Sequence record: NC_070990.1
DNA from: Escherichia phage MN03
Strand: one strand, 5' to 3'
DNA length: 64,000 nucleotides
Part shown: one piece after another, positions 1 through 26,013 of the stretch
How positions within the stretch are numbered: position 1 is the stretch's first letter
Layout of the letters: every line of letters begins with the position of its first letter
Notes under the pieces: model-generated
What the model was told of the DNA's origin: nothing
What the model saw: the letters and a program-made list of their open reading frames with translations, nothing else
Database searches by the model: none
Program-made: the position numbers and the translations under genes

Positions 1-146
1 CCATCAATGCCATCTTTACCATCAATGCCATCTTTACCATCAATGCCATCTTTACCATCAATGCCATCTTTACCATCAATGCCATCTTTACCATCAATGC
101 CATCTTTACCATCAATGCCATCAATGCCATCTTTACCATCAATGCC
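1..146. repeat. Tandem 18-bp repeat array (unit atcaatgccatctttacc, about 7 copies plus partial units), running off the window start
   Basis: Directly visible periodicity of 18 nt from position 3; on the minus strand it encodes G-K-D-G-I-D hexapeptide repeats. Confidence 0.9.
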
Positions 147-338
147 ATTAGCGCCAGTGTCGCCTTTCTCTCCCTGATCACCTTTTTCACCTTTAAACCA
201 ATCTCCGATACCGCAACCATTGGCAGATTGACCTACACCACAACCTCCATTGCCATTGCCATTGTTTCCACTTTTAGCAAAAACAGGCGATGCCATTACG
301 GACAGAGCTAGGATTGAGGATAATACAATTGCTTTCAT
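1..338 (-). CDS. Secreted collagen-like (Gly-X-Y) repeat protein, N-terminal part only; gene continues past the window start
   Basis: Minus-strand ATG at 338 with AGGAA upstream; translation MKAIVLSSILALSVMASPVFA (signal-peptide-like) then GNGNGG... GEKGDQGEKGDTGANGIDGKDGID repeats with no stop to position 1; not in ORF track because truncated. Confidence 0.5.
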   Translation of the reverse strand, partial: MKAIVLSSILALSVMASPVFAKSGNNGNGNGGCGVGQSANGCGIGDWFKGEKGDQGEKGDTGANGIDGKDGIDGIDGKDGIDGKDGIDGKDGIDGKDGIDGKDGIDGKDGID

Positions 339-360
339 TTCATAGATTCCTATACAGTAG

Positions 361-390
361 ACATAAAAAAGCCCCAGCCGTAGCCGGGGC
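361..390 (-). terminator. Hairpin plus T-run (rho-independent terminator-like) on minus strand
   Basis: gccccagccgtagccggggc stem-loop flanked by a run of A on the plus strand (T-run on minus). Confidence 0.4.
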
Positions 391-449
391 AAACCTGAAA
401 GCAACACATGACCGTTGCTATAAATACACTCGCAAATGCACTTACAGCA

Positions 450-478
450 ACGCAAAAAGCCGCTCAAAGGCGGCTATG
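450..478 (-). terminator. Hairpin plus T-run downstream of the 556..999 gene
   Basis: agccgc-tcaaag-gcggct inverted repeat preceded by aaaaa on the plus strand. Confidence 0.45.
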
Positions 479-555
479 CGGAAGCTTCAAATGGGGAGAG
501 GGCACGACGCTACAGAAAGAGCGTCACAGTACTAAAAGAGGGGGCTATATTCCTA

Positions 556-999
556 CTACTTAACCCTTGCCTCTTTGATGGGGTCGATGTATTTCTCAAC
601 GCCCCACTTGTGTTTACTGTCTGCGTAGAAAACATCAGGTGCACACTGGCTTGTCTTAGGGAAAGCCTGCGGGTCTTTCGTGCTACCTTTAAACTTCTGT
701 TTACCACGGGTGCGACCATTACAGAAGATTTCTAACTTCTTCTCCTCTTCTGTTTTAGCTCCCCCGCTCTGTAACAAAGAACGTTTATGATCAGCTAACA
801 ACAACGCATCAGCCCGATGGACACGATGGCCTACACGTTTTGCCACACTTGAAGGAACATGGGATTCAGCCTCAGCCTTTGCAGCACGACGTTTTAAACT
901 ACGCTTACTGACATGATTAGTTGCCTTCGGTTTCTCTTTCTCCAGTTCAGAGATAGCAAAACAACGCCCACCCTTCATGCTGATTTTAGATTTAGCCAC
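556..999 (-). CDS. Hypothetical basic protein (147 aa)
   Basis: ORF track; Lys/Arg-rich; no recognisable motif. Confidence 0.45.
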   Translation of the reverse strand: MAKSKISMKGGRCFAISELEKEKPKATNHVSKRSLKRRAAKAEAESHVPSSVAKRVGHRVHRADALLLADHKRSLLQSGGAKTEEEKKLEIFCNGRTRGKQKFKGSTKDPQAFPKTSQCAPDVFYADSKHKWGVEKYIDPIKEARVK

Positions 1000-1068
1000 A
1001 ATCTCATTCCTTTCAGTGATAAGTTATATCGGGCAAGCCCATCAAGTCGATAGGCTTGAACAAACAAC

Positions 1069-1278
1069 TTAATCAAGTAAACTAAACGACTTCCAACTGC
1101 GTAGCAGGATTGTACCATCGTCCATAGCTACACATAATTTCAATAATCCTTTGGTGACACTACTCACTGTTGTAATTCGTCCGGTTGTACATTTACCTTT
1201 ATTGCTATAAAGATATATTACACGACGGCCTAACAAGCGGGAAGGTGATTTCTTAAATTCTGAAATGTTAGTGATCAT
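1069..1278 (-). CDS. Hypothetical protein (69 aa)
   Basis: ORF track; tight end-to-start packing with neighbours on the same strand. Confidence 0.3.
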   Translation of the reverse strand: MITNISEFKKSPSRLLGRRVIYLYSNKGKCTTGRITTVSSVTKGLLKLCVAMDDGTILLRSWKSFSLLD

Positions 1279-1499
1279 AATGCTTGATACCTTTGAATGT
1301 GTTCAATACGGGTGGATTGAGCAAATGACGCTTTAACAGCCATTTTCCTAACTTCTTCTTTACGCTGGTTAGTGTGTACAGTATCCCAATGTTTGTTATC
1401 ACGTTGGCGCTGTAATATCTTACTACATTTGCGATGGTTTCCCGTGCTGCGATGTTTCTCACAAATAGGACACTTGCCAAAATTACTACTGAATATCAT
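1275..1499 (-). CDS. Hypothetical Cys/His-rich small protein (74 aa)
   Basis: ORF track; CPIC...HRKC pattern suggests a zinc-binding element; overlaps neighbour by 4 nt. Confidence 0.4.
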   Translation of the reverse strand: MIFSSNFGKCPICEKHRSTGNHRKCSKILQRQRDNKHWDTVHTNQRKEEVRKMAVKASFAQSTRIEHIQRYQAL

Positions 1500-1723
1500 T
1501 TTCTCAATCCCAGCTTTCTTAAGATACGGCCTAACGTTGTTTCTTGCGTGATAATATAACTGATCGCTTCACGTTCCAGCGTTTCAATCTTCATTGGCGA
1601 CGGATACCATTCACCGGTAATAACACATTTACATTCAACGCCATACTTTTTAGATAGGCGGTAATGTTGACCATTGACAAGATTCCTATAAATCGTGGTA
1701 TGTGTAATTAACATGATCGTCAC
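1496..1723 (-). CDS. Hypothetical protein (75 aa)
   Basis: ORF track; 4-nt overlap with downstream gene. Confidence 0.4.
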   Translation of the reverse strand: MTIMLITHTTIYRNLVNGQHYRLSKKYGVECKCVITGEWYPSPMKIETLEREAISYIITQETTLGRILRKLGLRK

Positions 1724-1764
1724 CTTTGATTAGATTCTTTGATTAATGCACTGAATCAATGCAC

Positions 1765-1803
1765 TGATAAAAGAAAAGGCGCTACCCGTTAAGATAGCGC
1801 CTT
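1765..1803 (-). terminator. Rho-independent terminator-like hairpin downstream of the 1826..2725 gene
   Basis: aaggcgcta / tagcgcctt 9-bp inverted repeat with 10-nt loop, followed on the minus strand by tttcttttat. Confidence 0.55.
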
Positions 1804-1825
1804 ATGTTTATTCAAATTGTCTTAC

Positions 1826-2725
1826 TTATGCCGCCTGACGTGCCGCCATAATTTCAGCCGCTTTACGCAATACTTCTTCCTCTTCTGCTTTCGCCGCTTG
1901 TTCGGTACGGGTAGCAACCGTTGAAGAGATACGACCGCGCAGACTTTCTAACTTCTCCTGCATAGCTGCAACAGTCTTTTCCATTTCATCAGCGTATGAA
2001 TCGAGTGATTCTAATTCCTTGCTTGATGCGTTCATCAGATAATCATCCGAGATCGCTACCGTTGAGGCCGTGACTTTCTTGATGAGTGAATCAAAGGACT
2101 TTTTAACCTTCCCAACTTCTTCACTCAGGGCGATAGTGTTATCGCTGGTTGCGCCGTTGCGCTCATCAGCCAGTAATTTGGCTTCAATACGGATTGCATT
2201 CAAGCGTTCAACCAAAGCGTAAATATCCTGATTAAAATCTTCCTTGTTTTTCGCCGGAATTTGCAGGTGTGCCGCCACGTTGTCATTGCAACCTTTGTAG
2301 AAGTTAGGATTATCCACTTCAATTGCACGACCTAATGCAAAGTTTTCGAAAGCGTTTGACCAGCGAGCGCGGTTTTGTTCCATTTTGGCCTTAATTTGCG
2401 CTTCTTTCGCATCTTCTTTAGCTTTCGCCTCACCTTCCAGATTAATCCACTTTTTACGACCATTTGCCGCATCGGTGTTAAACTTGATAGGAGTTAAGAA
2501 AGTAATTGCGGTAGCGATAACATCCATATCACGGAAACGTTCAGTTAACAGAAAATCAACCGCCGTCTGCAATACTTCCAGCTTTTTACCGTTACTGCGG
2601 AAGTGCTGCAAGTGCCCTAACAGAAAATTAGAAACATCTTGTTTGATCGCCGCGTTATTGCTACGAATGTTGTTAGCCAGTGCATTAAAACCGGATTCGT
2701 TAACCAGAGTAAAGATTTTAGCCAT
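1826..2725 (-). CDS. Hypothetical protein (~299 aa), coiled-coil-rich C-terminus
   Basis: ORF track ORF 1826..2734; start moved to ATG at 2725, which has AAGGTGA 6-7 nt upstream; no family recognised. Confidence 0.55.
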   Translation of the reverse strand: MAKIFTLVNESGFNALANNIRSNNAAIKQDVSNFLLGHLQHFRSNGKKLEVLQTAVDFLLTERFRDMDVIATAITFLTPIKFNTDAANGRKKWINLEGEAKAKEDAKEAQIKAKMEQNRARWSNAFENFALGRAIEVDNPNFYKGCNDNVAAHLQIPAKNKEDFNQDIYALVERLNAIRIEAKLLADERNGATSDNTIALSEEVGKVKKSFDSLIKKVTASTVAISDDYLMNASSKELESLDSYADEMEKTVAAMQEKLESLRGRISSTVATRTEQAAKAEEEEVLRKAAEIMAARQAA

Positions 2726-4096
2726 GATATTCACCTTTCAATTGTAAGGGCGCTATTGCCCCGCTCTCTATGAGCTTGTTTAAGTCACTATTAACTTAAC
2801 TATAACCACTCGTTGTTAAGTAGTTATAGGTAAGCGGGGCGGTCTTATCAGGAGTTAACCTTGCCGCCCCCTTATCCGTGATGTTTCATCTGGTATCTTT
2901 AATTAGTCGCTATAAACGAAGCCGACCTGATAGCGATGATCAATCATCACAATAAGGCTATGCGTCCGACTCTATTTAATTACATTGCTGTAACCGTCGG
3001 CAATATCGTCTACTTTGTTTTCGCTCCCGCTTATCCTTTTGTATCAGCTCTCTATCGCTAGTCATCGCCCACTACGGGATACTATTGCGAAAGAGTCACT
3101 AACCGCCTAATATTCCGGCGTTTTATATCTTTCAGCAGGTTTACTACATAACCCGGCTATGTACTTTCATCCTATGATGAATCTCAAGCCGTTCACATCG
3201 TAAACGTTCGCATTAAACCTTATTGTTAAATAGCAATTTGCCACTTTTTAACCACTCCCCGCCGCTCTCAATTGAGCGTTAATTCGTCGGACTTGCCTAC
3301 CCTGATTAACTTCTTTCACTGTAGCACCGTGTTAGCAATGACCTCCGCTACCCTTAACCGTGGGCGATTAGCTCAAGTCTTTGCGTGTACTCAATGAATC
3401 CGTTTATCAATGGTGACGTTTCCAGTAAGGGAATGTAAAACTGTTTACCCTGATAATTTAGGGAGTTTTACGCCGTTTTATCTGGTATGCTTTCCGATGG
3501 TTATTATCATCAAGCATATTCAACCGATATAGGAGAATGTTTAAATTATTAAAGAGCGGTAAATCTATCAGTGTGCTTTCTCACACTATGCAACTGTTAG
3601 CCGTTGTTACGCTTTTCACTGAAGCGATGATTTGCTTAGTGAGTGCTCATTATGAATCATGTTGTTTTCGCTGTCAACCGCTTTTTAATCTTTTTTCGTC
3701 GTTCCCGCTATTGGGAGGATATATCAATCAGCTTTATTTGATTGAAGATTAAGCGGTGAGGCTTAACTTATGACTCATATTGTTAAAGAGCGTTTAGCCT
3801 TTTAAAGTGTCTGCTAATCACTGTCACATTGAAGGCTTACTGATTCATTAACAGGCCGCCTACACCTGAACTAATCGCTGCACTATGTGCCACCTTTCCC
3901 GCGATACGTTGATTTGGGAACTAGTTAGCGATGTTTTGCTAACTTGTGGTTAGTATGGACTACTTTAACCACGTTTGCAACTCTTTTTATCATCTTCTTT
4001 TAATTCCTTTCCCTTATCTCGCGTGAATCTATGCGAAAGGGCAAGATGATAAGTTTTTAAAGAGCGGGATTTTTTAAGTCATCGCTGACTATGCTC

Positions 4097-4125
4097 ACTA
4101 TATATCAGGCTTTTTCCGGTGTCAA
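4097..4125 (-). promoter_or_regulatory. Candidate sigma70-type promoter (minus strand): TTGACA, 17-nt spacer, TATAGT
   Basis: Minus-strand reading of 4125..4097 is TTGACAccggaaaaagcctgataTATAGT; perfect -35 and 5/6 -10 with canonical spacing. Confidence 0.4.
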
Positions 4126-4509
4126 TACTCTTTTTTGAGAATATTTTCACTTTCTAGCCTGATTTTTAAAGAGCGGGGCAATTTCTTGCCTTGTATGTTT
4201 TACATCGTACCCGATGAAATGAAGTATACGCTAATCAGATGAGGTTGCAATAGGGTAAAGCAAATTATTTTAAACTTTTTCACTATAGGAAGGTAAAAGA
4301 GCAGGCGCACGCGATACATCATAGAAAACGGCTTGTAAAGCGATATTTAGCGGCCTAAAACGCATCACAACGGGCTAAAAGGGAGTAAGGCATACAATCA
4401 CCTCATAAAAGAGAAAAGCCTCACTAGGAGGCTTACAGGAAGGATTAGAGAATCAGATAAATTATGACCATAGGCATGACTACGGCACAATACAGGAGAA
4501 AGATTAAGC

Positions 4510-4972: not shown

Positions 4973-5248
4973 CTATTCATCGTTGCTATTCTCGCCAAAA
5001 AATGCTACGCTAATCTGTTCCACTTCTTCCAGCGACAGGAGAATCCCGCGTTGGGCTAAATACTTCCCAACAGTTAGATAATCTTGCACTAAACAGACAA
5101 TAGGAAAGCGTATATTTTGAATCTCACCTTTGGAAAGAAAAGACAAATATCCAACGTCGATTGATTCATCAAAGGACAATGTAACGCCACCGTAATTATG
5201 CGTATCAATTAACGCAATAGTTTCATTTCCCATTGGTATCATCCCCAA
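4973..5248 (-). CDS. Hypothetical protein (91 aa)
   Basis: ORF track; overlaps upstream ORF by 26 nt. Confidence 0.3.
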   Translation of the reverse strand: MGMIPMGNETIALIDTHNYGGVTLSFDESIDVGYLSFLSKGEIQNIRFPIVCLVQDYLTVGKYLAQRGILLSLEEVEQISVAFFGENSNDE

Positions 5249-5489
5249 TCAGACCATGATTAAGCAGGTTAGCCAGCGACAAATCACCGTCAATATAGAT
5301 TGATCTGAAATCATCGCGGGTAATTTCGAAATCAGCAAAGGCTAGCCAATCTTTAAGAGGCTGATATTCCATCCTGCAAAAAGTGATAACAGGCAAGATT
5401 ATCTGACCATCAAGTGTATTAAACTCGATAGATTGCCCACCAACAAAACAAGAAAAGCCGTTTGATAACTTAACTTCTTTGATAGCCAT
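5223..5489 (-). CDS. Hypothetical protein (88 aa)
   Basis: ORF track. Confidence 0.3.
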   Translation of the reverse strand: MAIKEVKLSNGFSCFVGGQSIEFNTLDGQIILPVITFCRMEYQPLKDWLAFADFEITRDDFRSIYIDGDLSLANLLNHGLIGDDTNGK

Positions 5490-16497: not shown

Positions 16498-19056
16498 ATG
16501 ATCGTTTATAATAACCAAGCACCTGATGCAGTGAATAACGTTGGGCAGTTTGGTGCTACTGAAGGCTCTATCGGAGCTTACAAGCAAGCAGCAGAATATG
16601 CAGCTGACTCCAAATATTGGGCACTGCTAGCAGAATCTAAGTTTGGTACAATTGATGATTTAATCGCTGAAGTAGAACGTCTATATCAACAGGGTGTTCT
16701 GATGAAGCAGGATATTGAAGATCTTAAGCAGGATTTTAAGGATCAAGATGCTCGTTTGATGACTCTGATTGCCCAAACCAACGCAGCAGTATCGGATGCT
16801 AATAATGCCGTTGCTCTCATTAACCAAAAACTTATTGAAGTCCAGAATCAGCTTGATGTTCTGTTAGGAATGTCTGTTGATGTAACAACTCTCCCTCCGG
16901 GAACTCCGGCTACTGGCTCTTTTAATCCTAACACTGGTGTAATCTCTTTAGGTATTCCAGAAGGTGATCCCGGAAAAGATGGTTCTGTTAAGGATTTGGA
17001 TACAGCACCTACAGGTGTTCCAGAGCTAGGTGATTTAGGTTTCTATGTTGACAAAGATGACAATACCGTCCACAAAACTACTCTAGATAACATTGCTAAT
17101 TTAATCCCATCTGTTCGTTCTGTCTCTATTAACGGCGGTCCAGCTCTTGATGGAGAGGTTGCTCTAACACTTAACAAAGAGACGGTAGGTTTAGGGAATG
17201 TTCTGAACGTTGCTCAGTACAGTCGTCAAGAGATTAATGACAAGTTTGATAAAACCACCAAGACATATCAATCTAAAGCAGAAGCTGATGCTGACGCTCA
17301 GTATCGCCAAGTTGGTGAGAAGGTCTTAGTTTGGGAAGCTACTAAGTATGAATTTTATACTGTTGCTGCTAACAAAACATTAACTCCTGTTAAAACTGAA
17401 GGTAGAATTCTTACTGTTAATTCCCGTTCTCCAGACTCCAGTGGTAATATTGACATTACCATTCCAACAGGAAACCCTTCTCTATATCTTGGTGAGATGG
17501 TAATGTTCCCTTATGACCCAACGAAGAATATCTCCTATCCGGGCGTTCTTCCAGCCGATGGTCGTCTAGTGTCTAAAGAGTCTGCTTCAGATTTAGGCCC
17601 ATCCCTTGTCAGCGGACAGCTCCCTGTTGTTTCAGAAACTGAATGGCAATCGGGGGCTAAACAGTACTTCTCTTGGGGTAAATTGGCAGATGGTATTACC
17701 GATGCAGATTCTACTAATTTTATCAACATTCGACTTCCTGATTGGACTGGAGGGGAGGCAATAAGAGCACCAGATTCTGATAAAGACTCTCAGTACAATG
17801 GGTCTGTACAGGCTCAGAAACCTTATGTTGTTACTGTAAATAACCAAGCTCCTGATGAGATTACTGGTAATGTGAACATCTCCAGATCAATTTTAGGTGC
17901 TGCCGCTTCTGGTACAAACTCTGATATAACATCCCTCACGGGACTCACTACAGCACTGTCTGTCACACAAGGAGGCACTGGAGCTAAAGACGCTGCTAGT
18001 GCTCGTTCTAATCTAGGTCTAAGCTCCATAGCTACACTCAACACAATTCCTATAGCTAATGGTGGTACAGGGGCAACTACTGTTGATGCTGCTCGTTCCA
18101 ATTTATCTATAGATAGAGTTGATCAAGCCTCTGGGGAGAGTAGATTACTATCTCCTAACAAAGAAACCTACCTCTTTGTGGATAATAATGGGTGGGGATG
18201 TTATAGTACCTCGCCTGGAAGAGTTGGCGATTTGGCTCTAGGTGTTGAAAGAGGAGGCACTGGAGCTAAAAATGCTGCTAGTGCTCGTTCTAATCTAGGG
18301 TTGGGAAGTGTTTCTACTCTGGATAATGTACCTATTGCTAATGGTGGGACAGGGGCTGGAGATGCTGCTGGTGCAAGGTTCAATATTGGAGCGCTAAGTA
18401 ACACCCCAGCAAATTCAGGCGTAGGTGGTACTGGGGATCGTGTCCAACATGCCTCCGGGAACGGCCTGTTTACTTTAGACTTGTTTAACTGCTACTGGTA
18501 TATGCAGCCAGAGGATACTAACTTCTGGATTGCCCACGGTGTGTCATATGCAGGGTCTGGTGGCGAAGCCTCACAATACGGTCGCATATCTTACGCAATA
18601 AAGATTGCAGACGGAACAATAAAATATGTCCATTGTCTTACAAACAAAAACACCACTGTTGATGTAAACGGATTTATCAAAGCGGCATCTCCGGTAGTTC
18701 ATATTTACTCCGACGGTAGATATGAGACGAACGAGGAATCTGAGGGGGTTAATGTCATTCGGCAAGGTGTTGGTGAGTACTTGATTACCGGTTGCCTTGG
18801 CTTAAACGCAGATGCAAAATGGGGAGGCATTGACGGCGGCTTTGAAATCCCTACTGACCGCAACAAACAACCTAGGGTTTGGCTGGACTATGAGATTAAA
18901 GAAGATGGTTCTATTTTAGTTAAAACCTATCACAGAACCCATCCAACCTCTCCGGTTTTTGCTAGAAATGAGATAGAAGGTTTTTCTGACGGTGATCCTA
19001 TTGATATCCCGAGTGATGCTTTTATTTCAGTTCGTGTTGAAATGCCTTCTGAGTAA
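16498..19056 (+). CDS. Tail fibre protein (852 aa) with internal GGTGA...SARSNLGL repeats
   Basis: Two to three copies of a ~45-aa motif (GGTGAKDAASARSNLGLSSIATL...PIANGGTGA); position in tail module. Confidence 0.65.
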   Translation: MIVYNNQAPDAVNNVGQFGATEGSIGAYKQAAEYAADSKYWALLAESKFGTIDDLIAEVERLYQQGVLMKQDIEDLKQDFKDQDARLMTLIAQTNAAVSDANNAVALINQKLIEVQNQLDVLLGMSVDVTTLPPGTPATGSFNPNTGVISLGIPEGDPGKDGSVKDLDTAPTGVPELGDLGFYVDKDDNTVHKTTLDNIANLIPSVRSVSINGGPALDGEVALTLNKETVGLGNVLNVAQYSRQEINDKFDKTTKTYQSKAEADADAQYRQVGEKVLVWEATKYEFYTVAANKTLTPVKTEGRILTVNSRSPDSSGNIDITIPTGNPSLYLGEMVMFPYDPTKNISYPGVLPADGRLVSKESASDLGPSLVSGQLPVVSETEWQSGAKQYFSWGKLADGITDADSTNFINIRLPDWTGGEAIRAPDSDKDSQYNGSVQAQKPYVVTVNNQAPDEITGNVNISRSILGAAASGTNSDITSLTGLTTALSVTQGGTGAKDAASARSNLGLSSIATLNTIPIANGGTGATTVDAARSNLSIDRVDQASGESRLLSPNKETYLFVDNNGWGCYSTSPGRVGDLALGVERGGTGAKNAASARSNLGLGSVSTLDNVPIANGGTGAGDAAGARFNIGALSNTPANSGVGGTGDRVQHASGNGLFTLDLFNCYWYMQPEDTNFWIAHGVSYAGSGGEASQYGRISYAIKIADGTIKYVHCLTNKNTTVDVNGFIKAASPVVHIYSDGRYETNEESEGVNVIRQGVGEYLITGCLGLNADAKWGGIDGGFEIPTDRNKQPRVWLDYEIKEDGSILVKTYHRTHPTSPVFARNEIEGFSDGDPIDIPSDAFISVRVEMPSE

Positions 19057-19065
19057 TTTAACAAT

Positions 19066-19084
19066 GCTCCCTTCGGGGGGCTTT
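19066..19084 (+). terminator. Hairpin with UUCG-type loop after the tail fibre gene (weak T-run)
   Basis: gctccc-ttcg-gggggc followed by ttt. Confidence 0.4.
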
Positions 19085-19096
19085 AAGGAGATTTAA

Positions 19097-21295
19097 ATGT
19101 CTAGAGAATTAATGCCCAAATCTGGTATAATGATGCCTCATGTGGTTGTAACCAGAGACGCGGCTGTTGTTGGGGTTTCTACTGTAGATGGACAGGCTGG
19201 AGCTATTAACCTCACCGGAAAATATTTACAGAAAACCGACGCAGCTGCTACCTATCAAACTAAAACAGAGGGTGCATCTAAAGATTTTGTGCTGGATTCG
19301 ATTCAACCTATTATGTCTGGTGCGCTGTTCCGAGAAGACCCTTGGGTTGTTAATGATACCCCATTCCGTTCTACTGGAGCTAATGGTGTAGAATCAGTTG
19401 ATATGATGAAAGTTACTACTGATAACTCAATCAAGATTGGTAGTTATGCCTCTTCAGTTCAAGGTGTAGAGATTCATTCTGCTGGTCGTCTTCAGGTTGT
19501 TGACCAGAATGACTCTGGGGTAGAAACTAAGTATCCAGTTTATTCTAAACGTTACCGTCCTGAGATTGAGGATTTGCCTTTTGCTGCAATTGGTTCTTAT
19601 GTTAAAGACTCTAAAGGTCGTACGGTAGGTGTTACTCGTACAGGGATTAACTCTGATATCAAACAGCTCACACAGAAAGTTACTTTCACTCAACCAGTAA
19701 CTGTCCCTGATGCAGTTGGTGATTATGATGCGGTGACTTTGAGACAGCTTCGAAACAGTGGTGGTGGCTCTGGTGGTCCTACGATGAGCGGTATCTCTAA
19801 CTTTGGTATTGGTGATTTCCATTTACGTGACAGTCGAGCTTTTATTCCAGCTTTTGAGGTAACGTCAGACGGTCAGCTTCTTAATCGTTCAGAGTACCCA
19901 GATCTCTGGGCTTATGCACAGCTGTTATCCCCTATCTCAGATTCTGAATGGCTTAGTGATGCCCAAAAACGTGGACAGTACTCTACTGGTGATGGTTCTA
20001 CTACTTTCCGCGTTCCAGACCGCAACGGGGTTCAGGTCGGTTCTATTAGGGAGCTATTTGGTCGCGGTGATGGTGGTACATCATCCAACGATGGTGTTAT
20101 CTATGATTCTGCTGCACCTAATATCAAAGGTAAGGTCGCTGGTGTATCAGCCGGGACTTATGCAGGGATATTCGGGACGTCTGTGCAAGATTCATTCTAT
20201 ACGGATAACAGTTTGTATCCGGCTGGTGGAGGGGACACTATACCTCCGGGGTCCGGTGCAGTTGATGGACGTAATAATACTCTAGTCTTCGACGCAAGCC
20301 AGTCCAACCCAGTTTATGGTCGTTATAGTATCTCTGACAACATTATACCGAGAAACTTTGTGGGGGTTTGGACTATTCGTGCTCATGGTGGATTTGTTGC
20401 TGCTAATACTTCTTGGTCTGTTATTAATAGTGACACCACACGACCTTCCAACGGAACGAAAGTTTCTAGTGGGTCAGTTGTCTCTGAGTATAAAATCGGT
20501 TCAGAAGTAGAAGCTTCTACTACTCTCAAAACTGATGCCTACATCAACGGAGCTTACTATGGAATCATTGACGTCTACAATAAAACTAAAGGAGTTACCA
20601 AGCAGTTAGCTTTCGACGATTCTGGTACACTGAATTCTGATAGGTATGTTTCTAGATTTGGCACTTTGATGTCTTGGAGTGAAACAGGAGCTAGGAAAGG
20701 AACATTCTCCATGGACAACCAAGGGCTAGGGTCTAACTTCTCCTTCAATTCCATACTAAGTGCTTCTCAATCATCTAGTGGGGGATACAAGACCACCACT
20801 CATGTTGGCATGATTCACAACGACGCCGGAACTTTTGCCGATTCTTGCTGGCACGTTGCAGGTGATGAAGACAACAAATACGGTTGCCGTCTAACACTTC
20901 GACCAAACAGGAATGAGATTTTATATTATACTTGGCAACCCGGCTCTACTGGAACATACACTCTTGCTCTGAATCCCGTGTCAGATGAAAGATTAAAACA
21001 TGATATCCAAGATATTTCCCCTGAGAAAGCTATCAAAGCTATTAAAGGTTTGGATTTCAAATCATTTGTGTATAACAATGATGAGCAAGGAAGAACTCGT
21101 CGTGGTATTATTGCACAGCAAGCAGAAAAGGTAGAACCTCTTTATGTTAAGACTCGTAGGTTCCACGACAATGATGGTGTAGAGCAAGAACAGAAAGAGC
21201 TAGACTCAGCTCCTATGCTCCTTGATACTATGCAGGTTGTTCAAGACCTTCTGAAGCGTATTGAAGTTCTAGAAGCAAAACTAGCAGAGAGGTAA
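19097..21295 (+). CDS. Tail fibre/tailspike protein with C-terminal intramolecular chaperone (peptidase S74-like) domain (732 aa)
   Basis: C-terminal SDERLKHDIQDI...GIIAQQAEKVEPLYV...LEAKLAER matches the auto-cleaving chaperone-of-endosialidase signature. Confidence 0.8.
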   Translation: MSRELMPKSGIMMPHVVVTRDAAVVGVSTVDGQAGAINLTGKYLQKTDAAATYQTKTEGASKDFVLDSIQPIMSGALFREDPWVVNDTPFRSTGANGVESVDMMKVTTDNSIKIGSYASSVQGVEIHSAGRLQVVDQNDSGVETKYPVYSKRYRPEIEDLPFAAIGSYVKDSKGRTVGVTRTGINSDIKQLTQKVTFTQPVTVPDAVGDYDAVTLRQLRNSGGGSGGPTMSGISNFGIGDFHLRDSRAFIPAFEVTSDGQLLNRSEYPDLWAYAQLLSPISDSEWLSDAQKRGQYSTGDGSTTFRVPDRNGVQVGSIRELFGRGDGGTSSNDGVIYDSAAPNIKGKVAGVSAGTYAGIFGTSVQDSFYTDNSLYPAGGGDTIPPGSGAVDGRNNTLVFDASQSNPVYGRYSISDNIIPRNFVGVWTIRAHGGFVAANTSWSVINSDTTRPSNGTKVSSGSVVSEYKIGSEVEASTTLKTDAYINGAYYGIIDVYNKTKGVTKQLAFDDSGTLNSDRYVSRFGTLMSWSETGARKGTFSMDNQGLGSNFSFNSILSASQSSSGGYKTTTHVGMIHNDAGTFADSCWHVAGDEDNKYGCRLTLRPNRNEILYYTWQPGSTGTYTLALNPVSDERLKHDIQDISPEKAIKAIKGLDFKSFVYNNDEQGRTRRGIIAQQAEKVEPLYVKTRRFHDNDGVEQEQKELDSAPMLLDTMQVVQDLLKRIEVLEAKLAER

Positions 21296-21299
21296 TATA

Positions 21300-21320
21300 A
21301 GCCCCTTCGGGGGCTTTAGT
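21300..21320 (+). terminator. Hairpin terminator-like element after the tailspike gene
   Basis: agcccc-ttcg-ggggct followed by ttagt. Confidence 0.45.
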
Positions 21321-21387
21321 AGTGAGTACCCTTAGTAAGTAATGAAACTAATATATCCCAAGAGGTTAATATATAGGAGACACTCAA

Positions 21388-21606
21388 ATGAAAATGATGA
21401 AACAAGCTGCATATGGTTTAATATGTTTAGGCGCAGGTGTTGTGGTATCCACCGCAGTTCCTGTAGGCGCAGTTCATCCATTAGTAACTGTCCCTGCTCC
21501 AGTAGAGAAGCTTAGCTCTCAATGCAAGCAGAGAACAATTCAAAATAACTTAGTTGTTATTTGCCCTGATGCTGAATCTAACGCTCTGAGAAAGATACTA
21601 CCTTAA
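21388..21606 (+). CDS. Small membrane protein (72 aa), possible holin-like or lysis-associated
   Basis: N-terminal MKMMKQ plus hydrophobic AAYGLICLGAGVVVSTAV; immediately upstream of the lysozyme gene. Confidence 0.4.
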   Translation: MKMMKQAAYGLICLGAGVVVSTAVPVGAVHPLVTVPAPVEKLSSQCKQRTIQNNLVVICPDAESNALRKILP

Positions 21607-21635
21607 TTTAAAGGGACTACAAAAGGAGGTTAGAA

Positions 21636-22127
21636 ATGGATAACGTCGCATTGCCACCTGTACAACTAAACTTAAGCCCAGCTGGAATGGAATTCATCAT
21701 GAAGCATGAGGGTATGAGAACAAAGGCTTATAAAGATTCCGCAGGTATCTGGACTATATGTGTAGGGGCTACGCGCGATATGAATGGTTATCCGGTTAGA
21801 CAAGGATTAACGTATTCTATAGAGGATTGTCTAGCTCTGCTAGATAGAGACACACAAGACTCTGTTCGTGCTACTCAGAAGAACATAAAGGTTCCTTTAC
21901 TAGTTCATGAGTTTGATGCACTCACTTCTTTCAACTTCAATGTTGGCAGTGGGGCTTTGAGCACATCTAAGTTAAGGAAGGTAATCAATGGAGATGTTAA
22001 GGGGGATGTTTATTCCGAATTTCTTCGTTGGGATAAAATAACGGTCAAGGGAGAGAAGCAGAGAAGTCAGGGTCTTCATAATAGAAGAGTTGCAGAAGCT
22101 AATCTTTACACCGAAGGTAAATATTAA
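21636..22127 (+). CDS. Lysozyme, glycoside hydrolase family 24 (T4-lysozyme-like) (163 aa)
   Basis: MKHEGMRTKAYKDSAGIWTICVGAT matches the GH24 catalytic Glu/Asp/Thr region; AAGGAGG SD. Confidence 0.85.
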   Translation: MDNVALPPVQLNLSPAGMEFIMKHEGMRTKAYKDSAGIWTICVGATRDMNGYPVRQGLTYSIEDCLALLDRDTQDSVRATQKNIKVPLLVHEFDALTSFNFNVGSGALSTSKLRKVINGDVKGDVYSEFLRWDKITVKGEKQRSQGLHNRRVAEANLYTEGKY

Positions 22128-22139
22128 TGGAGGTGCCTT

Positions 22140-22943
22140 TTGGCTATCGAAACTAATGCGGTAGTTATTACCGACTTAAACCCACTCTATCCTAGAGACA
22201 GGGATTACATCTACGAAGGGGCGGCTCAAATCCGCCTCATTAAACAAACGTTACAGAACACATTCCCCAATGTTACAGAACCGGTTGATATAGATTCTGA
22301 CACCTTTAAGATTATGTCAGAGAAGCTCAAGTTTACTGGTGATGCAATGGATGTTGGTGGTCTTATGATCAAGAACGTTACTCCGGGAACTGGTGACAAG
22401 GATGTTGTTACTAAAGGTCAGATGGAAGCGTTCATGAAGAACTGGATGGAGAATAAGCTCTATCGAATTGGTTCTTACTACATCACTGAAGAAGATATTA
22501 ACCCCGGTGATTCTATCTCCTTAGGGTTTGGTTCTTGGGCTAAAGTGACTGGTGTCATTATGGGTACTGGTGTAGTAAACCCTGATGGTTCTGTCCCTAA
22601 TGCTCAGAGAGTTGAGTTCCAAGCAGGTGGTACTGGTGGTCGTGTCTTCAATACCATTCGAACTGAGAACGTACCTCTGATGACAGTTAATGGCTCCAGC
22701 TTCTCTCTATCCAGTAACACTCACAGTCACAATATGGTGTTTGGTCGTGGAGATGCTAGTGGTCATAACAGCTCACCAAACTGGTATAGTCCGGGTGGTG
22801 GTTACAGTCAGAGAACTGATAGCGACACTCACACTCATACAATCTCTGGTAGTGTAAGTCTTGGTCGTGATGATATCTCTCGTCAACCTATTAACACTTT
22901 GCCACCATTCAGAGCAGCTCACATTTGGAGACGTATTAGCTAA
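22140..22943 (+). CDS. Virion structural protein (267 aa), TTG start
   Basis: ORF track; GGAGGTG 5 nt upstream of TTG; Gly/Ser/Thr-rich. Confidence 0.5.
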   Translation: MAIETNAVVITDLNPLYPRDRDYIYEGAAQIRLIKQTLQNTFPNVTEPVDIDSDTFKIMSEKLKFTGDAMDVGGLMIKNVTPGTGDKDVVTKGQMEAFMKNWMENKLYRIGSYYITEEDINPGDSISLGFGSWAKVTGVIMGTGVVNPDGSVPNAQRVEFQAGGTGGRVFNTIRTENVPLMTVNGSSFSLSSNTHSHNMVFGRGDASGHNSSPNWYSPGGGYSQRTDSDTHTHTISGSVSLGRDDISRQPINTLPPFRAAHIWRRIS

Positions 22944-22952
22944 GGAGGAATT

Positions 22953-25900
22953 ATGGCGCTGTATCCAATAAAGTCACTAGGTGCTGTAGGCGTTATCGCT
23001 GATCAGGCTCCGACAGACTTAGCTCCTAATGCTTTCACTAATGCTATAAATGCTCGATTTGTTGAGCAGAGAGTATTTAAGACGGGGGGCAATGCCCCTC
23101 TTTCTTATGTAGATGAAGATAAGGATTTAACCCCTCTGTCTTTCGTTTCTATGCCTTTCGATTATTATAGCGCAGGTAATAGCTTTCTTGTTGTAGGTAC
23201 GGATAAGAAGTTATATAAACTGACAGATGAAAGCTTGACTGATATTAGCCGTAAGGTTGCTACAGTCACTAAGAAGGCTTCTGCCTCAATTAAGATTTAT
23301 CCAGTTGTTTCTCAGATCGTTCCTAAAGAATCAACTATCTCAATGAACTTCAATCAGACCAAGAATCTAGAGGTTTCTCTTCTCCCTGCTGATGCTAACA
23401 ATACTGATCTTATTTGGGAGGTTAGTAACTCATCCTATGGAAGTATTGCGGTAGACCCTAGTGACTCTAAACTTGCTACTCTAACATCTTTTGAGAAAGA
23501 GGGTAATCTTGTAGTAACTATCTCTACTGCCAATGAATCCGTAGTGGCTCAGATTGCTGTTAATATTATCGACGGTGATTCAGGCATCTTCTTGAGTCAA
23601 GACACTGTTACAATTCGTAAAGGGGGGACTACTACTCTCACGGCTGTTACTGGCAAAACTCCTGTAACTTGGTCCAGCAATAACGCTTCTATTGTATCCG
23701 TAACCCCTAACGCCAACTCTTTAACTGCTGTCATTACAGCGAATGGAGAAGGTAATGTAACAATCACTGCTGATAACGGAACGAAGATTGCTTCTTGTGA
23801 GGTTGTTTCCATCCCTCAGATTGATAGTATCTCTTTAAGCCAGTCAGATGTTACTGTTAGTAGAGGTTCTCAGTATATCTTAACTGCTACCCTTTCTCCT
23901 GCTAACGCCCCTAATCAAAATATTACTTGGACCTCTTCTAATCCAAATATTGCAACAGTATCAGGGACTAGCACACAAGGGACGATCAACGCTCTACTTG
24001 CTGGTTTTACTGAGATTACAGCTACCACTGAAGAAGGTAACAGAGTTGCTGTCTGTACTGTACGTGTGGATTTAGCTGGAAGGACAATGAGAACAAGTGC
24101 TATGGCATTTGCCGCTCCTGTGTCAGAGTCAGTAGAAACTCAAGAGGAAGAAGTAGTAACTCCTCCTGAAAGTGAAGAGACGGTTTATTTTGCTGAGCCT
24201 ACATCCGGTATTGATACGTCAGGGATGTACGAAGGTAATAACTTCTATGACTACTCTAACGTGAATGACATTGAAGGTTTTGCAAGAGCTTCTTTACTGG
24301 CAACCCCTTTGTCATCTGTAACCTTAGATATTGTCAGTGCTTCTCTTGATGTTGGTGAAGAGATTGTCATTACAGCCACAGCTTCTCCAGAAGGTGAGTA
24401 CTCTTATCAGTGGTCTGTTGATAAAACTGGTTATGTTTCTACAACCTCAGTTACTGGTAAATCTATCAAACTGGTTGCTCTTCGTAAAGGGGAGATTAAT
24501 GTAACATGTACTGTCAGTCAGATGACTCAGAAAGATTACGATGCTTTTGATGACTATCCTTGGTATCACGCTGTTATCTCTAACTGTGCAGTTGCTACAA
24601 CTCACTATGAAACTCCTCAGGTAAAAGAATTCGAATCAGAATACTTTGTAGACCTTCCGGGATGGGGTGAGCAAACAGTTGTGGATAATGATGGAAACCC
24701 TTCAGTCAAGAAGTTTAACTGGAAATGTGAGAGAGTAAGATCTTTTAACAACCGTCTTTTTGCTCTGAATATGAGAGAGGCTAATGCTTCTGGTGTTACC
24801 ACTAACTATCCGCTTCGTCTTCGTTGGTCTAACTTTGCCAATGAGAACAAGGCTCCTACACTGTGGGATGACTTTGCCTATGATCGAGTTGTGTCTTCGG
24901 ACTTAGCTTCTAACATCGTAGGGCAGACTCAGGCTCTAGAGAATGGGTATGCTGGTTACATTGACTTAGCTGACTCTAATGGTAGCTTGATTGATATCCT
25001 GCCTCTTAAAGATTACTTGTTTGTTTATACAGAGTTTGAAACGTATATTGGTTCTCCAACTAATAACACGTACCAACCTCTAATGTTCAAGAAGCTTTTT
25101 AACGACTCTGGTATCCTTGCTCCTGAGTGTGTGGTTGAAGTAGAAGGTAGTCACTTCGTAGTTACTCAGAACGATGTAATCTTACACAACGGTGCAACTA
25201 AGAAATCAATTGCATCTAACCGTGTCAAGAACATGCTGATTAACGAGGTGTGTCTGGTTAATCCTTTAGCAACTCGAGTACACTTGCATCAGGATAAGAA
25301 AGAGGTTTGGGTTCTGTATGTAGGTCCGGGGGAGCCAAAAGAAAGCTTCGCTTGTACTAAAGCTGCTGTATGGAACTACGAGTTTGATACTTGGTCCTTC
25401 CGTACTATCCCATATGCTCAGTGTATTGGTCTGGTTGATCCTCCTGTTTTAGAAAGAGGTCCAATCTGGTCCGACTTCCAAGAAATCACTTGGGATGATC
25501 CATCTATTAAAGAACTCGTTTGGAGAAAGGATGCAACAAACTTTAGACAGAGGGTTACGATAGTAGGTTCATTCTTGAAGGGATTCTATCAAGTGGATGT
25601 GGGTGCTCTTGATTACTTCTATGACAGGCTAAATGATGTTGTTATAGAGAAGCCTCTGGAAATGAGGTTGGAGAGGACTGGTATAGATTTTGATAATGTG
25701 ACGAATGAGTGGAATCAGAAGCATATTAACAGGTTCCGACCTCAGACAACTGGTTCAGGTACTTACATATTTGAAGCTGGTGGTAGTCAATTCTCAAATG
25801 AATATGGACACCCACACACATCTAAGACATATACGATCGGTGTTGACAGGCATGTCTCGGTGAGACTGAACCATCCATACCTTTTCTATAATGTTATAGA

Positions 25901-25970
25901 TAATGATGTTAATAGTAATGCTGCTATCAATGGTTTAACGATAGAGTTTGCTGTTGGCGGGCGGAGATAA
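22953..25970 (+). CDS. Large structural protein with three tandem Ig-like (Big_2-type) domains (1005 aa)
   Basis: Three ~80-aa segments with V..S..TV/ITA...T...A.VTV pattern around residues 110-370; AAGGAGG SD. Confidence 0.6.
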   Translation: MALYPIKSLGAVGVIADQAPTDLAPNAFTNAINARFVEQRVFKTGGNAPLSYVDEDKDLTPLSFVSMPFDYYSAGNSFLVVGTDKKLYKLTDESLTDISRKVATVTKKASASIKIYPVVSQIVPKESTISMNFNQTKNLEVSLLPADANNTDLIWEVSNSSYGSIAVDPSDSKLATLTSFEKEGNLVVTISTANESVVAQIAVNIIDGDSGIFLSQDTVTIRKGGTTTLTAVTGKTPVTWSSNNASIVSVTPNANSLTAVITANGEGNVTITADNGTKIASCEVVSIPQIDSISLSQSDVTVSRGSQYILTATLSPANAPNQNITWTSSNPNIATVSGTSTQGTINALLAGFTEITATTEEGNRVAVCTVRVDLAGRTMRTSAMAFAAPVSESVETQEEEVVTPPESEETVYFAEPTSGIDTSGMYEGNNFYDYSNVNDIEGFARASLLATPLSSVTLDIVSASLDVGEEIVITATASPEGEYSYQWSVDKTGYVSTTSVTGKSIKLVALRKGEINVTCTVSQMTQKDYDAFDDYPWYHAVISNCAVATTHYETPQVKEFESEYFVDLPGWGEQTVVDNDGNPSVKKFNWKCERVRSFNNRLFALNMREANASGVTTNYPLRLRWSNFANENKAPTLWDDFAYDRVVSSDLASNIVGQTQALENGYAGYIDLADSNGSLIDILPLKDYLFVYTEFETYIGSPTNNTYQPLMFKKLFNDSGILAPECVVEVEGSHFVVTQNDVILHNGATKKSIASNRVKNMLINEVCLVNPLATRVHLHQDKKEVWVLYVGPGEPKESFACTKAAVWNYEFDTWSFRTIPYAQCIGLVDPPVLERGPIWSDFQEITWDDPSIKELVWRKDATNFRQRVTIVGSFLKGFYQVDVGALDYFYDRLNDVVIEKPLEMRLERTGIDFDNVTNEWNQKHINRFRPQTTGSGTYIFEAGGSQFSNEYGHPHTSKTYTIGVDRHVSVRLNHPYLFYNVIDNDVNSNAAINGLTIEFAVGGRR

Positions 25971-25974
25971 CAAC

Positions 25975-26000
25975 AAGGGGCTTCGTGCCCCTTTTATTGT
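25975..26000 (+). terminator. Rho-independent terminator
   Basis: aaggggc-ttcgt-gcccctt followed by ttattgtttt. Confidence 0.7.
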
Positions 26001-26013
26001 TTTGGAGGAACTT

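Follow-up and report, generated by a model that had tools for sequence, protein, structure and literature searches.

A minus-strand gene that runs off the edge of the 64,000-nucleotide stretch of Escherichia phage MN03 analysed here (NC_070990.1; hereinafter the window) encodes a signal-peptide-like N-terminus followed by a series of Gly-X-Y triplets, raising the question of whether its product is a fibre of the virion or a protein exported into the envelope of the infected cell. The window derives from a virulent podophage of E. coli, a Kuravirus of the phiEco32-like kind.

Reading frame and N-terminal architecture

The gene and its immediate upstream region comprise the following features:

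1..338, minus strand: 5′ part of the probable trimeric-autotransporter gene, 112 codons (translation and DNA identity to orthologues)
276..338, minus strand: predicted Sec-type signal peptide, residues 1-21 (MKAIVLSSILALSVMASPVFA), predicted cleavage after VFA (direct reading)
192..275, minus strand: Gly/Asn-rich cap at the N-terminus of the mature chain, residues 22-49 (28 residues) (translation)
247..264, no strand assigned: 6-bp repeat CCATTG in three copies, encoding GNGNGN in the cap (Tandem Repeats Finder)
1..191, minus strand: collagen-like (Gly-X-Y)n, 21 triplets visible, proline-free, with many charged residues (Pfam PF01391)
1..122, no strand assigned: tandem array of perfect 18-bp units, each encoding GKDGID and reading CCATCAATGCCATCTTTA on the plus strand (Tandem Repeats Finder and a second repeat search)
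348..351, minus strand: Shine-Dalgarno-like AGGA, 9-nt spacing to the ATG at 338
365..390, minus strand: terminator-like hairpin directly before the gene, GCCCCGGCTACGGCTGGGGC at 390..371 with a T6 run after it (hairpin scan)
458..475, minus strand: first terminator-like hairpin, which follows the upstream gene and does not vary among the aligned Kuraviruses
556..999, minus strand: upstream early gene, phi32_120 homologue, PHROG 11641, function unassigned (context)

Translation of the window yields a stop-free minus-strand frame of 112 codons from 338 to 1, beginning, as the initial annotation had proposed, at the ATG at 338 and reading MKAIVLSSILALSVMASPVFA followed by KSGNNGNGNGGCGVGQSANGCGIGDWFK, with GXY triplets thereafter up to the window edge. 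The DNA is 96.9% identical to that of phage SkaterBoy_Bas90 across window positions 1-3000 and 95.5% identical to that of phiEco32 across 109-3000, and the named orthologues of the gene in these phages are Bas90_0117 and phi32_119, respectively. The AGGA sequence sits in a block, (A/G)T(G/A)TCTAyTrTATAGGAA, that is common to the class to which the MN03 allele belongs, to a second, divergent allele class (class 2) and to the cassette of phage SGF2. The phiEco32 and SkaterBoy records place the start at an upstream TTG, which we rejected because that frame reads across the terminator-like hairpin at 390..371; class-2 alleles carry a different hairpin and T-run at this site, indicating that the structure is conserved there and the upstream reading frame is not. 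A plus-strand ORF at 7..177 (MPSLPS...) is a mirror image of the repeat and was not taken as a gene.

The predicted signal peptide, called by direct reading and a crude hydrophobicity test, has a lysine at position 2, a hydrophobic core of 13-14 residues, a proline at −4, and V-F-A at −3 to −1. The divergent class-2 allele retains the same n/h/c layout (MKAFALSAILVLSAISAPSFA, then HS after the cleavage site), and a comparable layout was detected by a crude heuristic in 51 of 63 viral ORFs with a YadA anchor. The cap that follows has two cysteines eight residues apart (GGCGVGQSANGCG); the class-2 allele and FSL SP-058-like phages likewise have two-cysteine caps, KCSHSKQCE in the former and QCASTWNCN in the latter. 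In the assembled protein, this cap would sit at the distal end of the fibre as its tip.

Beyond the cap, an uninterrupted GXY run spans residues 50-112, that is, 21 triplets in the window fragment, and matches the Pfam Collagen profile PF01391 with 34.2 bits, rising to 61.4 bits for a full-length orthologue (cut-off 27.2). As the initial annotation had recognized, much of it is specified by the 18-bp repeat, which Tandem Repeats Finder scored as 6.8 copies with 100% matches (score 244) and which runs off the window edge. Seven GKDGID units are seen in the window, six of them contiguous, followed by a GID half-unit (9 bp, 123-131) and one more copy ending at about position 148. Complete orthologues have 12-34 uninterrupted triplets. 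The GXY region of the SkaterBoy orthologue is devoid of proline, and 59% of its X and Y positions are charged. Charge pairs can stabilize bacterial collagens; nevertheless, the stability of such a proline-free run may be marginal.

A predicted C-terminal outer-membrane anchor and the probable molecular identity of the protein

The coiled-coil neck and YadA anchor of the MN03 gene lie beyond the window edge and were read from full-length orthologues, which are 97-100% identical to one another in this part and from which the MN03 anchor is deduced. A full-length orthologue aligned with the Pfam YadA_anchor profile PF03895 over all its positions (1-60 of 60; 68.7 bits, cut-off 22.7), its C-terminus aligned with the NCBIfam models of the YadA and BimA autotransporters, and its sequence matches in the PDB included the YadA anchor 2lme (E-value 1.9e-8) and Hia. 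In an AlphaFold model of the 196-aa allele, residues 89-134 form a helix and residues 145-194 contain four strands (pLDDT 70-81), and Foldseek searches with this model returned, at E≤1e-3, only the anchors of Hia, AtaA and YadA (TM-score to target 0.63-0.81). The neck helix directly precedes the strands, and it is with this region that the YadA and BimA models align at the ends of their stalks. The C-terminus in all alleles reads ...GAGVSYEW, an aromatic β-signal for BAM, and a terminal tryptophan was found in 138 of 147 related representatives drawn from the 150 best-scoring 50%-identity cluster representatives.

Collagen-like trimers require a nucleating trimerization domain, and the orthologues have a candidate for it in the neck helix and YadA anchor directly after the GXY run; from the family, this neck and anchor are expected to trimerize. 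We are confident that the gene encodes a small trimeric autotransporter (TAA; type Vc) whose whole passenger is collagen-like and which is exported to the outer membrane, a confidence that covers the molecular identity and the export route and does not extend to the biological role. By analogy with the family, the precursor would cross the inner membrane via Sec, and in the infected E. coli cell BAM would assemble three chains, through their anchors, into one 12-stranded barrel of the outer membrane; the helices would fill the pore while the passenger is threaded outward C-terminus first. Starting at the trimeric neck, the passenger would then zip outward to give a triple helix, about 10 to more than 30 nm long, with the Cys-loop tip on its end.

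The triple helix itself could be questioned, inasmuch as a period-6 array with an aliphatic residue at each sixth position and no prolines might adopt a non-collagen fold, such as a β-helix, and AF2 monomer models left the collagen part unstructured and gave no triple helix for the array. We regard such a fold as very improbable. The Gly-X-Y periodicity does not stop with the hexapeptide units but carries on unbroken where the sequence is no longer repetitive (SkaterBoy has 34 triplets), and it is kept in phage KM01, which has no GKDGID units at all; the Pfam Collagen match is significant; and the presumed trimeric neck right after the GXY run is the arrangement that a triple helix needs. AF2 built no β structure in the array, although its model of the mature fragment from the window, with no secondary structure and a pLDDT of 49, is uninformative about an alternative fold.

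With the passenger taken as a collagen-like rod on a trimeric anchor, the initial description of the protein as secreted needs qualification: it is predicted to be exported, but the orthologues point to a protein anchored in the outer membrane as a TAA and not to a free one. To be sure, the window displays only the signal peptide, cap and repeats, from which a soluble collagen-like protein, free or periplasmic, could be read if the anchor were missing or non-functional in MN03. We give this very little credence, in that the anchor is in frame and under purifying selection in nine of nine complete orthologous alleles, Sec export by itself would deliver the protein to the periplasm, and the nucleating trimerization domain is here the neck and anchor.

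A component of the virion, namely a collagen-like tail fibre or other tail protein, is what several public labels imply: the best PHROG match is a "tail protein" (PHROG 26246), the SkaterBoy and RefSeq phiEco32 records use the same term, and collagen-like repeats are frequent in phage fibres, with many collagen PHROGs being tail fibres. However, a cleavable signal peptide and an outer-membrane β-barrel anchor cannot be reconciled with the assembly of virions in the cytoplasm. The gene is also situated in an early block, neither lying in the late structural module nor being conserved across the genus: the tail-fibre module (16498-26982) is on the opposite strand and more than 16 kb away, and the gene is missing from most Kuraviruses, including SU10, the reference for the published virion structure of the group. 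Receptor binding is attributed, from the SU10 virion structure, to separate long and short tail fibres (BASEL paper, PMC11990801), and the yadA homologues of phages FSL SP-058 and FSL SP-076 were likewise noted to lie away from the tail genes (Moreno Switt 2013; PMC3728262). Moreover, a 44-aa leftover ORF that crosses the terminator in gene-negative genomes is also labelled "tail protein" or "recognition of host receptor", which shows annotation propagation. A virion role is, in our estimation, very improbable, and the protein would instead be displayed on the outer membrane of the infected cell, with no part in a virion fibre. This agrees with the export to the host envelope proposed initially, for which the complete YadA-type anchor at the end of the full-length orthologues now provides a basis. 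The novelty of the assignment is modest and less than had been assumed, as orthologues have been annotated since 2008, when phiEco32 gp119 was labelled "agglutinating adhesin"; others are called "YadA-like" in GenBank.

Genomic setting, expression and length variation

The gene belongs to the leftward block of early genes, where it is an optional cassette. It is present in approximately 13 of 95 Kuravirus records, its slot being empty in most, among them ES17, SU10, Bas91 and CHD5UKE1, and occupied in SGF2 by an HTH_37 gene. As most Kuraviruses do without it, any benefit that it confers must be conditional. Its early placement follows from the early assignment of CDS 69-125 in SU10 (PMC4281155) together with two minus-strand σ70 promoter matches (11/12 each) at 4125..4097 and 3677..3649. 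Two terminator-like hairpins lie between these promoters and the gene, and a σ70 scan recovered no minus-strand match near it. A candidate gp36 (phage-sigma) promoter at 359..351, TACTGTATA, is one mismatch from the published tAATGTATAtA; we did not accept it as evidence because such one-mismatch matches number 23 in the window against 19.5±4.4 expected, and a start 6-8 nt downstream would drop the Shine-Dalgarno sequence. We found no convincing dedicated promoter for the gene, and an Rfam search of the whole window gave no matches.

Repeat number varies among phages whose flanks are 95-97% identical, from zero to at least 8-10 GKDGID units, giving 12 to at least 35 triplets across alleles (about 10 to 30 nm); the variability in length anticipated from the array is thus borne out by comparison. 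The length changes are in frame without exception: the nine complete Kuravirus alleles are all intact, with sizes of 196, 226, 244, 250, 258 and 262 aa reported as multiples-of-6 differences. Gain or loss of perfect 18-bp units through slippage or recombination would shift fibre length by 6 residues (about 1.7 nm) at a time, and as the frame is never altered, the outcome is a length polymorphism rather than an on/off switch. An early stop, which would have undone the original interpretation, occurs in none of the nine complete alleles, and conservation extends to the part that encodes the signal peptide. With seven synonymous and four conservative non-synonymous variants (pN/pS ~0.18), the neck and anchor are, by this sequence measure, under purifying selection. 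Several public Kuravirus assemblies are broken or gapped at the 18-bp array, inside which the window, too, begins; a search of IMG/VR for further Kuravirus alleles returned phiEco32 itself only.

These observations bear on whether the gene might be a poorly expressed or silent passenger, a moron relic with no role in infection and with repeat variation as neutral slippage. The two hairpins directly upstream, the chance-level gp36 motif and the dispensability of the gene for most Kuraviruses are compatible with this. Against it, the slippage-prone array has accumulated no frameshifts or stops in complete alleles, pN/pS is low in the neck and anchor, two divergent allele classes have both kept the signal peptide, the Shine-Dalgarno/ATG block is conserved, and other virulent phage lineages have acquired the architecture independently. 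We therefore consider a silent relic improbable.

Phage records with YadA anchors number 108 and come from Kuravirus, N4-like, T4-like and jumbo phages, among others. The combination of signal peptide, Cys cap, collagen and anchor recurs in unrelated N4-like Salmonella podophages, there with 33-46 triplets, and in 26 of the 147 proteins that were new among the 150 best-scoring representatives of clusters at 50% identity. A recent origin by capture from E. coli was rejected, as blastn against 5,426 complete E. coli genomes returned no DNA match; the nearest bacterial and plasmid anchors share only 52-59% identity, and their passengers are coiled coils rather than collagen. Lysogenic conversion or a carrier state was likewise set aside, with persistent members numbering zero of 39 in the Gordonclarkvirinae.

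Relationship to known surface proteins and possible roles

The phage protein shares with YadA of Yersinia, Hia of Haemophilus and AtaA of Acinetobacter the signal peptide, fibrous passenger, coiled-coil neck, four-strand anchor and aromatic terminus, the PF03895 match and the predicted fold being in accord. Unlike these, it is a very small protein of 196-262 aa or more and lacks YadA-like head, neck and Trp-ring modules, its passenger consisting only of the proline-free collagen-like run and the tiny Cys-loop cap; and its carrier is a strictly virulent phage rather than a bacterial chromosome or virulence plasmid. Phage-borne TAA genes are otherwise known in E. coli from the eib genes, which are carried by temperate prophages as lysogenic-conversion factors and encode coiled-coil passengers. 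The Eib proteins are prophage-encoded immunoglobulin-binding TAAs of E. coli (PMC13534694). MN03-type genes differ from these in having a virulent Kuravirus as carrier and a collagen-like passenger, and no Eib chain was among the PDB sequence matches of the orthologue.

In its rod, the protein resembles Lcl of Legionella pneumophila and the streptococcal Scl1 and Scl2, surface collagen-like proteins whose tandem-repeat number varies among strains, as it does here. The orthologue gave partial matches to the NCBIfam models SclA, SclB and Lcl with 38-56 bits against cut-offs of 325-500, scores so far below the cut-offs that the likeness is confined to the collagen repeats. Their anchoring is also different, Scl proteins being attached by an LPXTG sortase signal and Lcl having a different C-terminal domain. 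Collagen-like tail fibres of phages and prophages have the Gly-X-Y repeats in common with the MN03-type protein but come without a signal peptide or membrane anchor and are encoded in late structural modules. A parallel in concept is offered by Llp of T5, Cor of φ80 and N15, and Lom and Bor of λ, phage-made envelope proteins that alter the surface of the infected cell: these too are Sec-exported, non-virion and dispensable for plaques, and Llp is an early product of a virulent phage. However, they are lipoproteins or 8-stranded barrels with receptor-blocking or serum-resistance roles and bear no sequence or structural relation to the protein considered here.

As to its function, the protein would remodel the exterior of the infected cell. 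Adhesion or auto-aggregation, binding infected cells to neighbours or surfaces, is plausible, though we advance it tentatively and at less than an even chance; it draws on the likeness to most TAAs and to collagen-like adhesins such as Legionella Lcl, polymorphisms of which are reported to be linked to adhesion and biofilm formation (PMC6460258). Were it correct, length variation would keep the tip beyond the O-antigen or capsule layer. A second possibility, though a doubtful one, is that the fibre shields the cell sterically or excludes superinfecting phages, which would include guarding progeny from adsorbing to debris; the rest of the probability falls to some other role or none. Our searches of the accessible literature recovered no experiments on a TAA of any virulent phage.

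A more general and speculative proposition, which we think rather unlikely, is that virulent phages of many lineages deliberately coat the doomed cell with a length-tuned TAA fibre, serving as glue or fence. The Kuravirus/SP-058 fibre would in that case be a minimal proline-free collagen rod whose length is set by an in-frame 18-bp VNTR and whose Cys-loop tip clears the O-antigen or capsule; it would glue the infected cell to fresh hosts or surfaces and thereby favour local spread, or alternatively fence off the surface against competing phages.

Independently of which role holds, the annotation calls for correction, in that the family is widely mislabelled as "tail protein" or "recognition of host receptor" and some of its annotated starts cross a terminator. 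Trimeric autotransporters are classic bacterial virulence adhesins, and such mislabels can mislead both host-range prediction and phage-therapy safety screens for adhesin or virulence genes. Kuraviruses such as ES17 and SU10-like phages are therapeutic candidates, for which stickier infected E. coli or the exclusion of other phages in a cocktail would matter. Pared down to collagen and an anchor, the design might also be of use as a compact scaffold on which triple helices are displayed at a surface. The question that these genes raise is why obligately lytic phages carry TAAs in their early region under purifying selection; if the coating proposition were true, they would represent a general and so far unstudied class of early phage genes for "surface-remodelling".

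A collagen-like passenger on a YadA-type anchor

The window, which encodes the terminase and portal at 8.8-12.7 kb, is 95-97 % identical over positions 1-3000 to the phiEco32-like Kuraviruses (Gordonclarkvirinae), prolate E. coli podophages of about 77 kb. At its edge, a minus-strand ORF opens with ATG 338 and runs for 112 codons without a stop up to position 1, translating as MKAIVLSSILALSVMASPVFA, then KSGNNGNGNGGCGVGQSANGCGIGDWFK, then (Gly-X-Y)21. The N-terminal residues are arranged like a classical Sec signal peptide: Lys2 precedes a hydrophobic core, Pro stands at -4, and V-F-A leads up to the putative cleavage site. The first Cys of the ORF has no lipobox context. The triplets include seven GKDGID hexapeptides encoded by an 18-bp unit (6.8 copies at 1..122, 100 % identity, score 244 in Tandem Repeats Finder), the series being broken once by a 9-bp half-unit (GID) at 123-131; this fragment alone exceeds the Pfam Collagen threshold (34.2 bits against 27.2). 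These features bear out the initial annotation of a gene starting at 338 with a predicted Sec-type signal peptide and at least seven GKDGID repeats continuing past the window edge. A 56-aa plus-strand ORF at 7-177 (MPSLPSMPSLPS...) was rejected as a gene, being an antisense reading of the array.

Orthologues include phiEco32 phi32_119 ('agglutinating adhesin' in GenBank, 'tail protein' in RefSeq), SkaterBoy Bas90_0117 ('tail protein') and a gene of EcP-vB ('YadA-like protein'). Beyond the repeat, the full-length versions have 14 further, non-repetitive triplets, followed by DADMSAVNANAKSIKALEQSTNKRFASLQKQ(V/I)DRNRDHASAGISGVAAMANIPQ..., and end in ...GAGVSYEW. A full-length orthologue matches, besides Pfam Collagen, the Pfam YadA_anchor model over its entire length (1-60/60; 68.7 bits, cut-off 22.7); in NCBIfam the C-terminus aligns with the terminal parts of the models for the autotransporters YadA and BimA, and PDB sequence searches recover the YadA anchor (2lme) and Hia. 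The AlphaFold model of the 196-aa allele places a single long helix at 89-134, ahead of four strands at 145-194 (pLDDT 70-81), and Foldseek searches with it at E<=1e-3 returned only the Hia, AtaA and YadA membrane anchors (TM-score to target 0.63-0.81). On these matches, which cover all testable features of the family, we identify the protein as a predicted trimeric autotransporter adhesin (TAA; type Vc secretion), whose passenger would comprise only the collagen-like run and a small cap between it and the signal peptide. Proline is absent from the collagen part, in which charged residues occupy 59 % of the X/Y positions.

Three sequence-unrelated caps occur in collagen-type phage TAAs:

192-275 of the window, minus strand: cap with exactly two cysteines, GGCGVGQSANGCG
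L005 (a relative's locus), about 1130-1160: cap KCSHSKQCE
L021 (a further relative's locus), about 2010-2040: cap QCASTWNCN

Each has exactly two cysteines, 5-8 residues apart, pointing to a conserved disulfide loop at the tip of the fibre. A ...GSVQISQCAS... motif is common to the metagenomic relatives.

An in-frame length polymorphism in an optional cassette

Complete Kuravirus alleles of the TAA gene (9 of 9 intact)
KM01: 196 aa; no GKDGID unit, 12 triplets
phiEco32: 226 aa
EK5: 226 aa
phiEc_1: 244 aa
Ec3-ASingh: 250 aa
Class 2, a divergent allele class (EcK-vB, EcP-vB, EcM-vB1): 258 aa
SkaterBoy: 262 aa; 34 triplets

PGN6866 has at least 35 triplets, so that triplet number ranges from 12 to at least 35 among Kuravirus alleles, which supports the hypervariable array that had been anticipated. 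Every length difference is a multiple of six residues and the anchor is therefore always in frame. The predicted rod would span about 10 to 30 nm across alleles, taking 0.286 nm for each residue. The variation thus reads as length polymorphism rather than phase variation. Variants in the anchor and in the neck, the helix preceding it, comprise seven synonymous and four conservative non-synonymous changes (pN/pS about 0.18, from small counts), consistent with purifying selection; this pattern, together with the intact frames of the complete alleles, makes it less likely that the gene is a silent relic.

The array also breaks or gaps public assemblies: FS2B falls into two contigs at this point, both ends of the PGN6866 record lie within the array, and ShigP1 has an N-run there. 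Since the window's own first base falls within the array, the MN03 source record probably starts where an assembly broke.

Upstream of the gene lie the following features:

999..556, minus strand: upstream gene, 5' of both hairpins
475..458, minus strand: terminator-like hairpin between the upstream gene and ATG 338
390..371, minus strand: second terminator-like hairpin in the same interval

The anchor is found in only about 13 of the 95 Kuravirus records that match the flanks. ES17 (flanks 97.0 % identical), SU10, Bas91 and CHD5UKE1 lack the TAA gene, and in these the next small gene comes straight after the second hairpin's T-run. In SGF2 the place of window 1-338 is taken by an unrelated, unannotated 99-aa HTH_37/XRE-type gene (L017 about 2190-2490, minus strand) behind the same CTAyTGTATAGGAAT sequence; the site thus behaves as a moron slot whose content can be exchanged. 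Beyond the window, two genes further downstream than the TAA gene, lies the conserved early-region gene phi32_117 (129 aa; 5041-5430, minus strand, in the relative's locus L001), which is present both with and without the TAA gene; its product scores 32.2 bits against Pfam Hydrolase_2 (SleB-type cell wall hydrolases).

The labels in the RefSeq phiEco32 record and the SkaterBoy record would make the product a tail protein, a reading that fails, as the gene departs from the tail fibre class in where it lies, how widely it is conserved and the export signals it encodes. On the opposite strand, at 16.5-27 kb, lies the window's tail-fibre module; moreover, host recognition has been assigned to separate long and short tail fibres from the virion structure of SU10 (BASEL study, PMC11990801), a phage without the TAA gene. 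In gene-negative genomes a 44-aa leftover frame across the terminator (2472-2606 in both L015 and L016, equivalent to window about 362-455) is itself labelled 'tail protein' or 'recognition of host receptor', which shows that these labels are propagated rather than findings; on the 44-aa ORF they are an annotation-propagation artefact of the over-extended phiEco32 gp119 start.

Start codon and expression

In the phiEco32 and SkaterBoy records the CDS starts at an upstream TTG, entailing translation across the second hairpin. An alignment of seven genomes revealed a different hairpin at the same place in class 2 (GCCTCC-TTAATT-GGAGGC + T6) and a block common to both allele classes (TATAGGAA...ATGAAATGAAAGCA); thus, the hairpin is conserved as a structure and the TTG extension is not conserved as a reading frame, and we rejected the TTG start. 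We place the start at ATG 338, with AGGA 9 nt upstream, the equivalent of which is used in four other records. A two-codon mini-ORF (ATG AAA TGA, 335-343, minus strand) overlaps this start codon (ATGAAATGAAAG), and the sequence ATGAAATGAAAGCA is conserved in both classes.

The gene belongs to the leftward early block (SU10 paper, PMC4281155) and lies downstream of two sigma70 consensus promoters (11/12) on the minus strand, at 4125..4097 and 3677..3649. These are located between two leftward genes in a spacer of about 1.8 kb (2735-4509) with no convincing ORFs, which probably corresponds to the early-promoter region known from phiEco32 and SU10; expression of the TAA gene via terminator read-through is the simplest assumption. 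The spacer also has four copies of an 18-nt motif around TTAAAGAGCGG (3542, 3776, 4050 and 4159); one copy pairs with 2755-2770 as a 94 % inverted repeat. The sequence at 359..351 comes close to the promoter motif of the phage's gp36, but was discarded as evidence because one-mismatch matches occur at chance frequency. The published gp36 core, TAATGTATA, has five exact copies in the window (15694, 32547 and 42798, plus strand; 42726 and 49752, minus strand), and the two facing cores at about 42.7-42.8 kb may mark a divergent promoter region.

Distribution, proposed export and role

YadA-anchor ORFs were found in 108 phage records, including N4-like Salmonella phages, the T4-like SKML-39, Erwinia and Aeromonas phages, and the jumbo phages GAP32, fHe-Yen9-04 and Munch. 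By a crude test, a signal-peptide-like N-terminus is present in 51 anchor-containing ORFs (63 IMG/VR contigs), exceptions being mostly truncated ORFs or obvious heuristic misses. The same design of signal peptide, two-Cys cap, collagen run (33-46 triplets) and anchor recurs in the unrelated FSL SP-058/076-like podophages, where the gene adjoins those for a dUTPase and small membrane proteins, not tail genes; the position of these yadA homologues away from tail genes was remarked on by Moreno Switt 2013 (PMC3728262). An exhaustive search of 1.84 billion cluster representatives yielded 147 newly returned proteins within the 150 best matches, 26 of them with at least eight triplets in almost always proline-free runs. 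At least one of these 26 comes from a bacterium, Pseudescherichia, where it is named 'YadA-like family protein', others being on phage-sized contigs. The closest named bacterial anchors (Enterobacter, Kluyvera and Morganella, 52-59 % identity) belong to proteins with coiled-coil passengers, unlike the collagen-like run of the phage TAA, and 5,426 complete E. coli genomes gave no DNA match to the TAA gene.

The domain architecture and its conservation are observed; the rest of the model follows type Vc secretion by analogy. The precursor would be exported by Sec, three chains would form a 12-stranded barrel inserted in a BAM-dependent manner, and the passenger would pass the pore C-terminal part first. 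Such an order would suit a collagen helix, which must zip outward from a trimeric nucleus at its C-terminal end, here the neck. The infected cell would thereby display a rigid surface fibre tipped by the Cys-loop cap.

As the Gordonclarkvirinae are strictly virulent, lysogenic conversion is ruled out as its role; we found no tests of any TAA from a virulent phage in the literature searched. By analogy, two roles seem about equally likely. In one, infected cells would adhere or auto-aggregate, as is the default for TAAs; the other is steric shielding or superinfection exclusion, for which early envelope proteins of virulent phages such as T5 Llp offer a parallel. Polymorphisms of the Legionella collagen-like adhesin Lcl are reported to be linked to adhesion and biofilm formation (PMC6460258). 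Under an adhesion role, length variation would hold the tip clear of the O-antigen layer that these phages depend on (BASEL study, PMC11990801).

The initial interpretation of an exported collagen-like protein was thus largely right, with orthologues supplying the anchored export architecture. Since annotators have called the family a YadA-like agglutinating adhesin from the phiEco32 genome of 2008 onward and it was remarked on in 2013, the window's copy is a new allele of a known gene. No earlier description appears to exist of the collagen-only passenger and its in-frame VNTR, of two allele classes that differ in signal peptide and cap, or of the locus as a cassette. Beyond its practical consequences for assembly and for annotation of this family, the gene raises the question of why obligately lytic phages place an adhesin-type fibre on a host that is about to be lysed.
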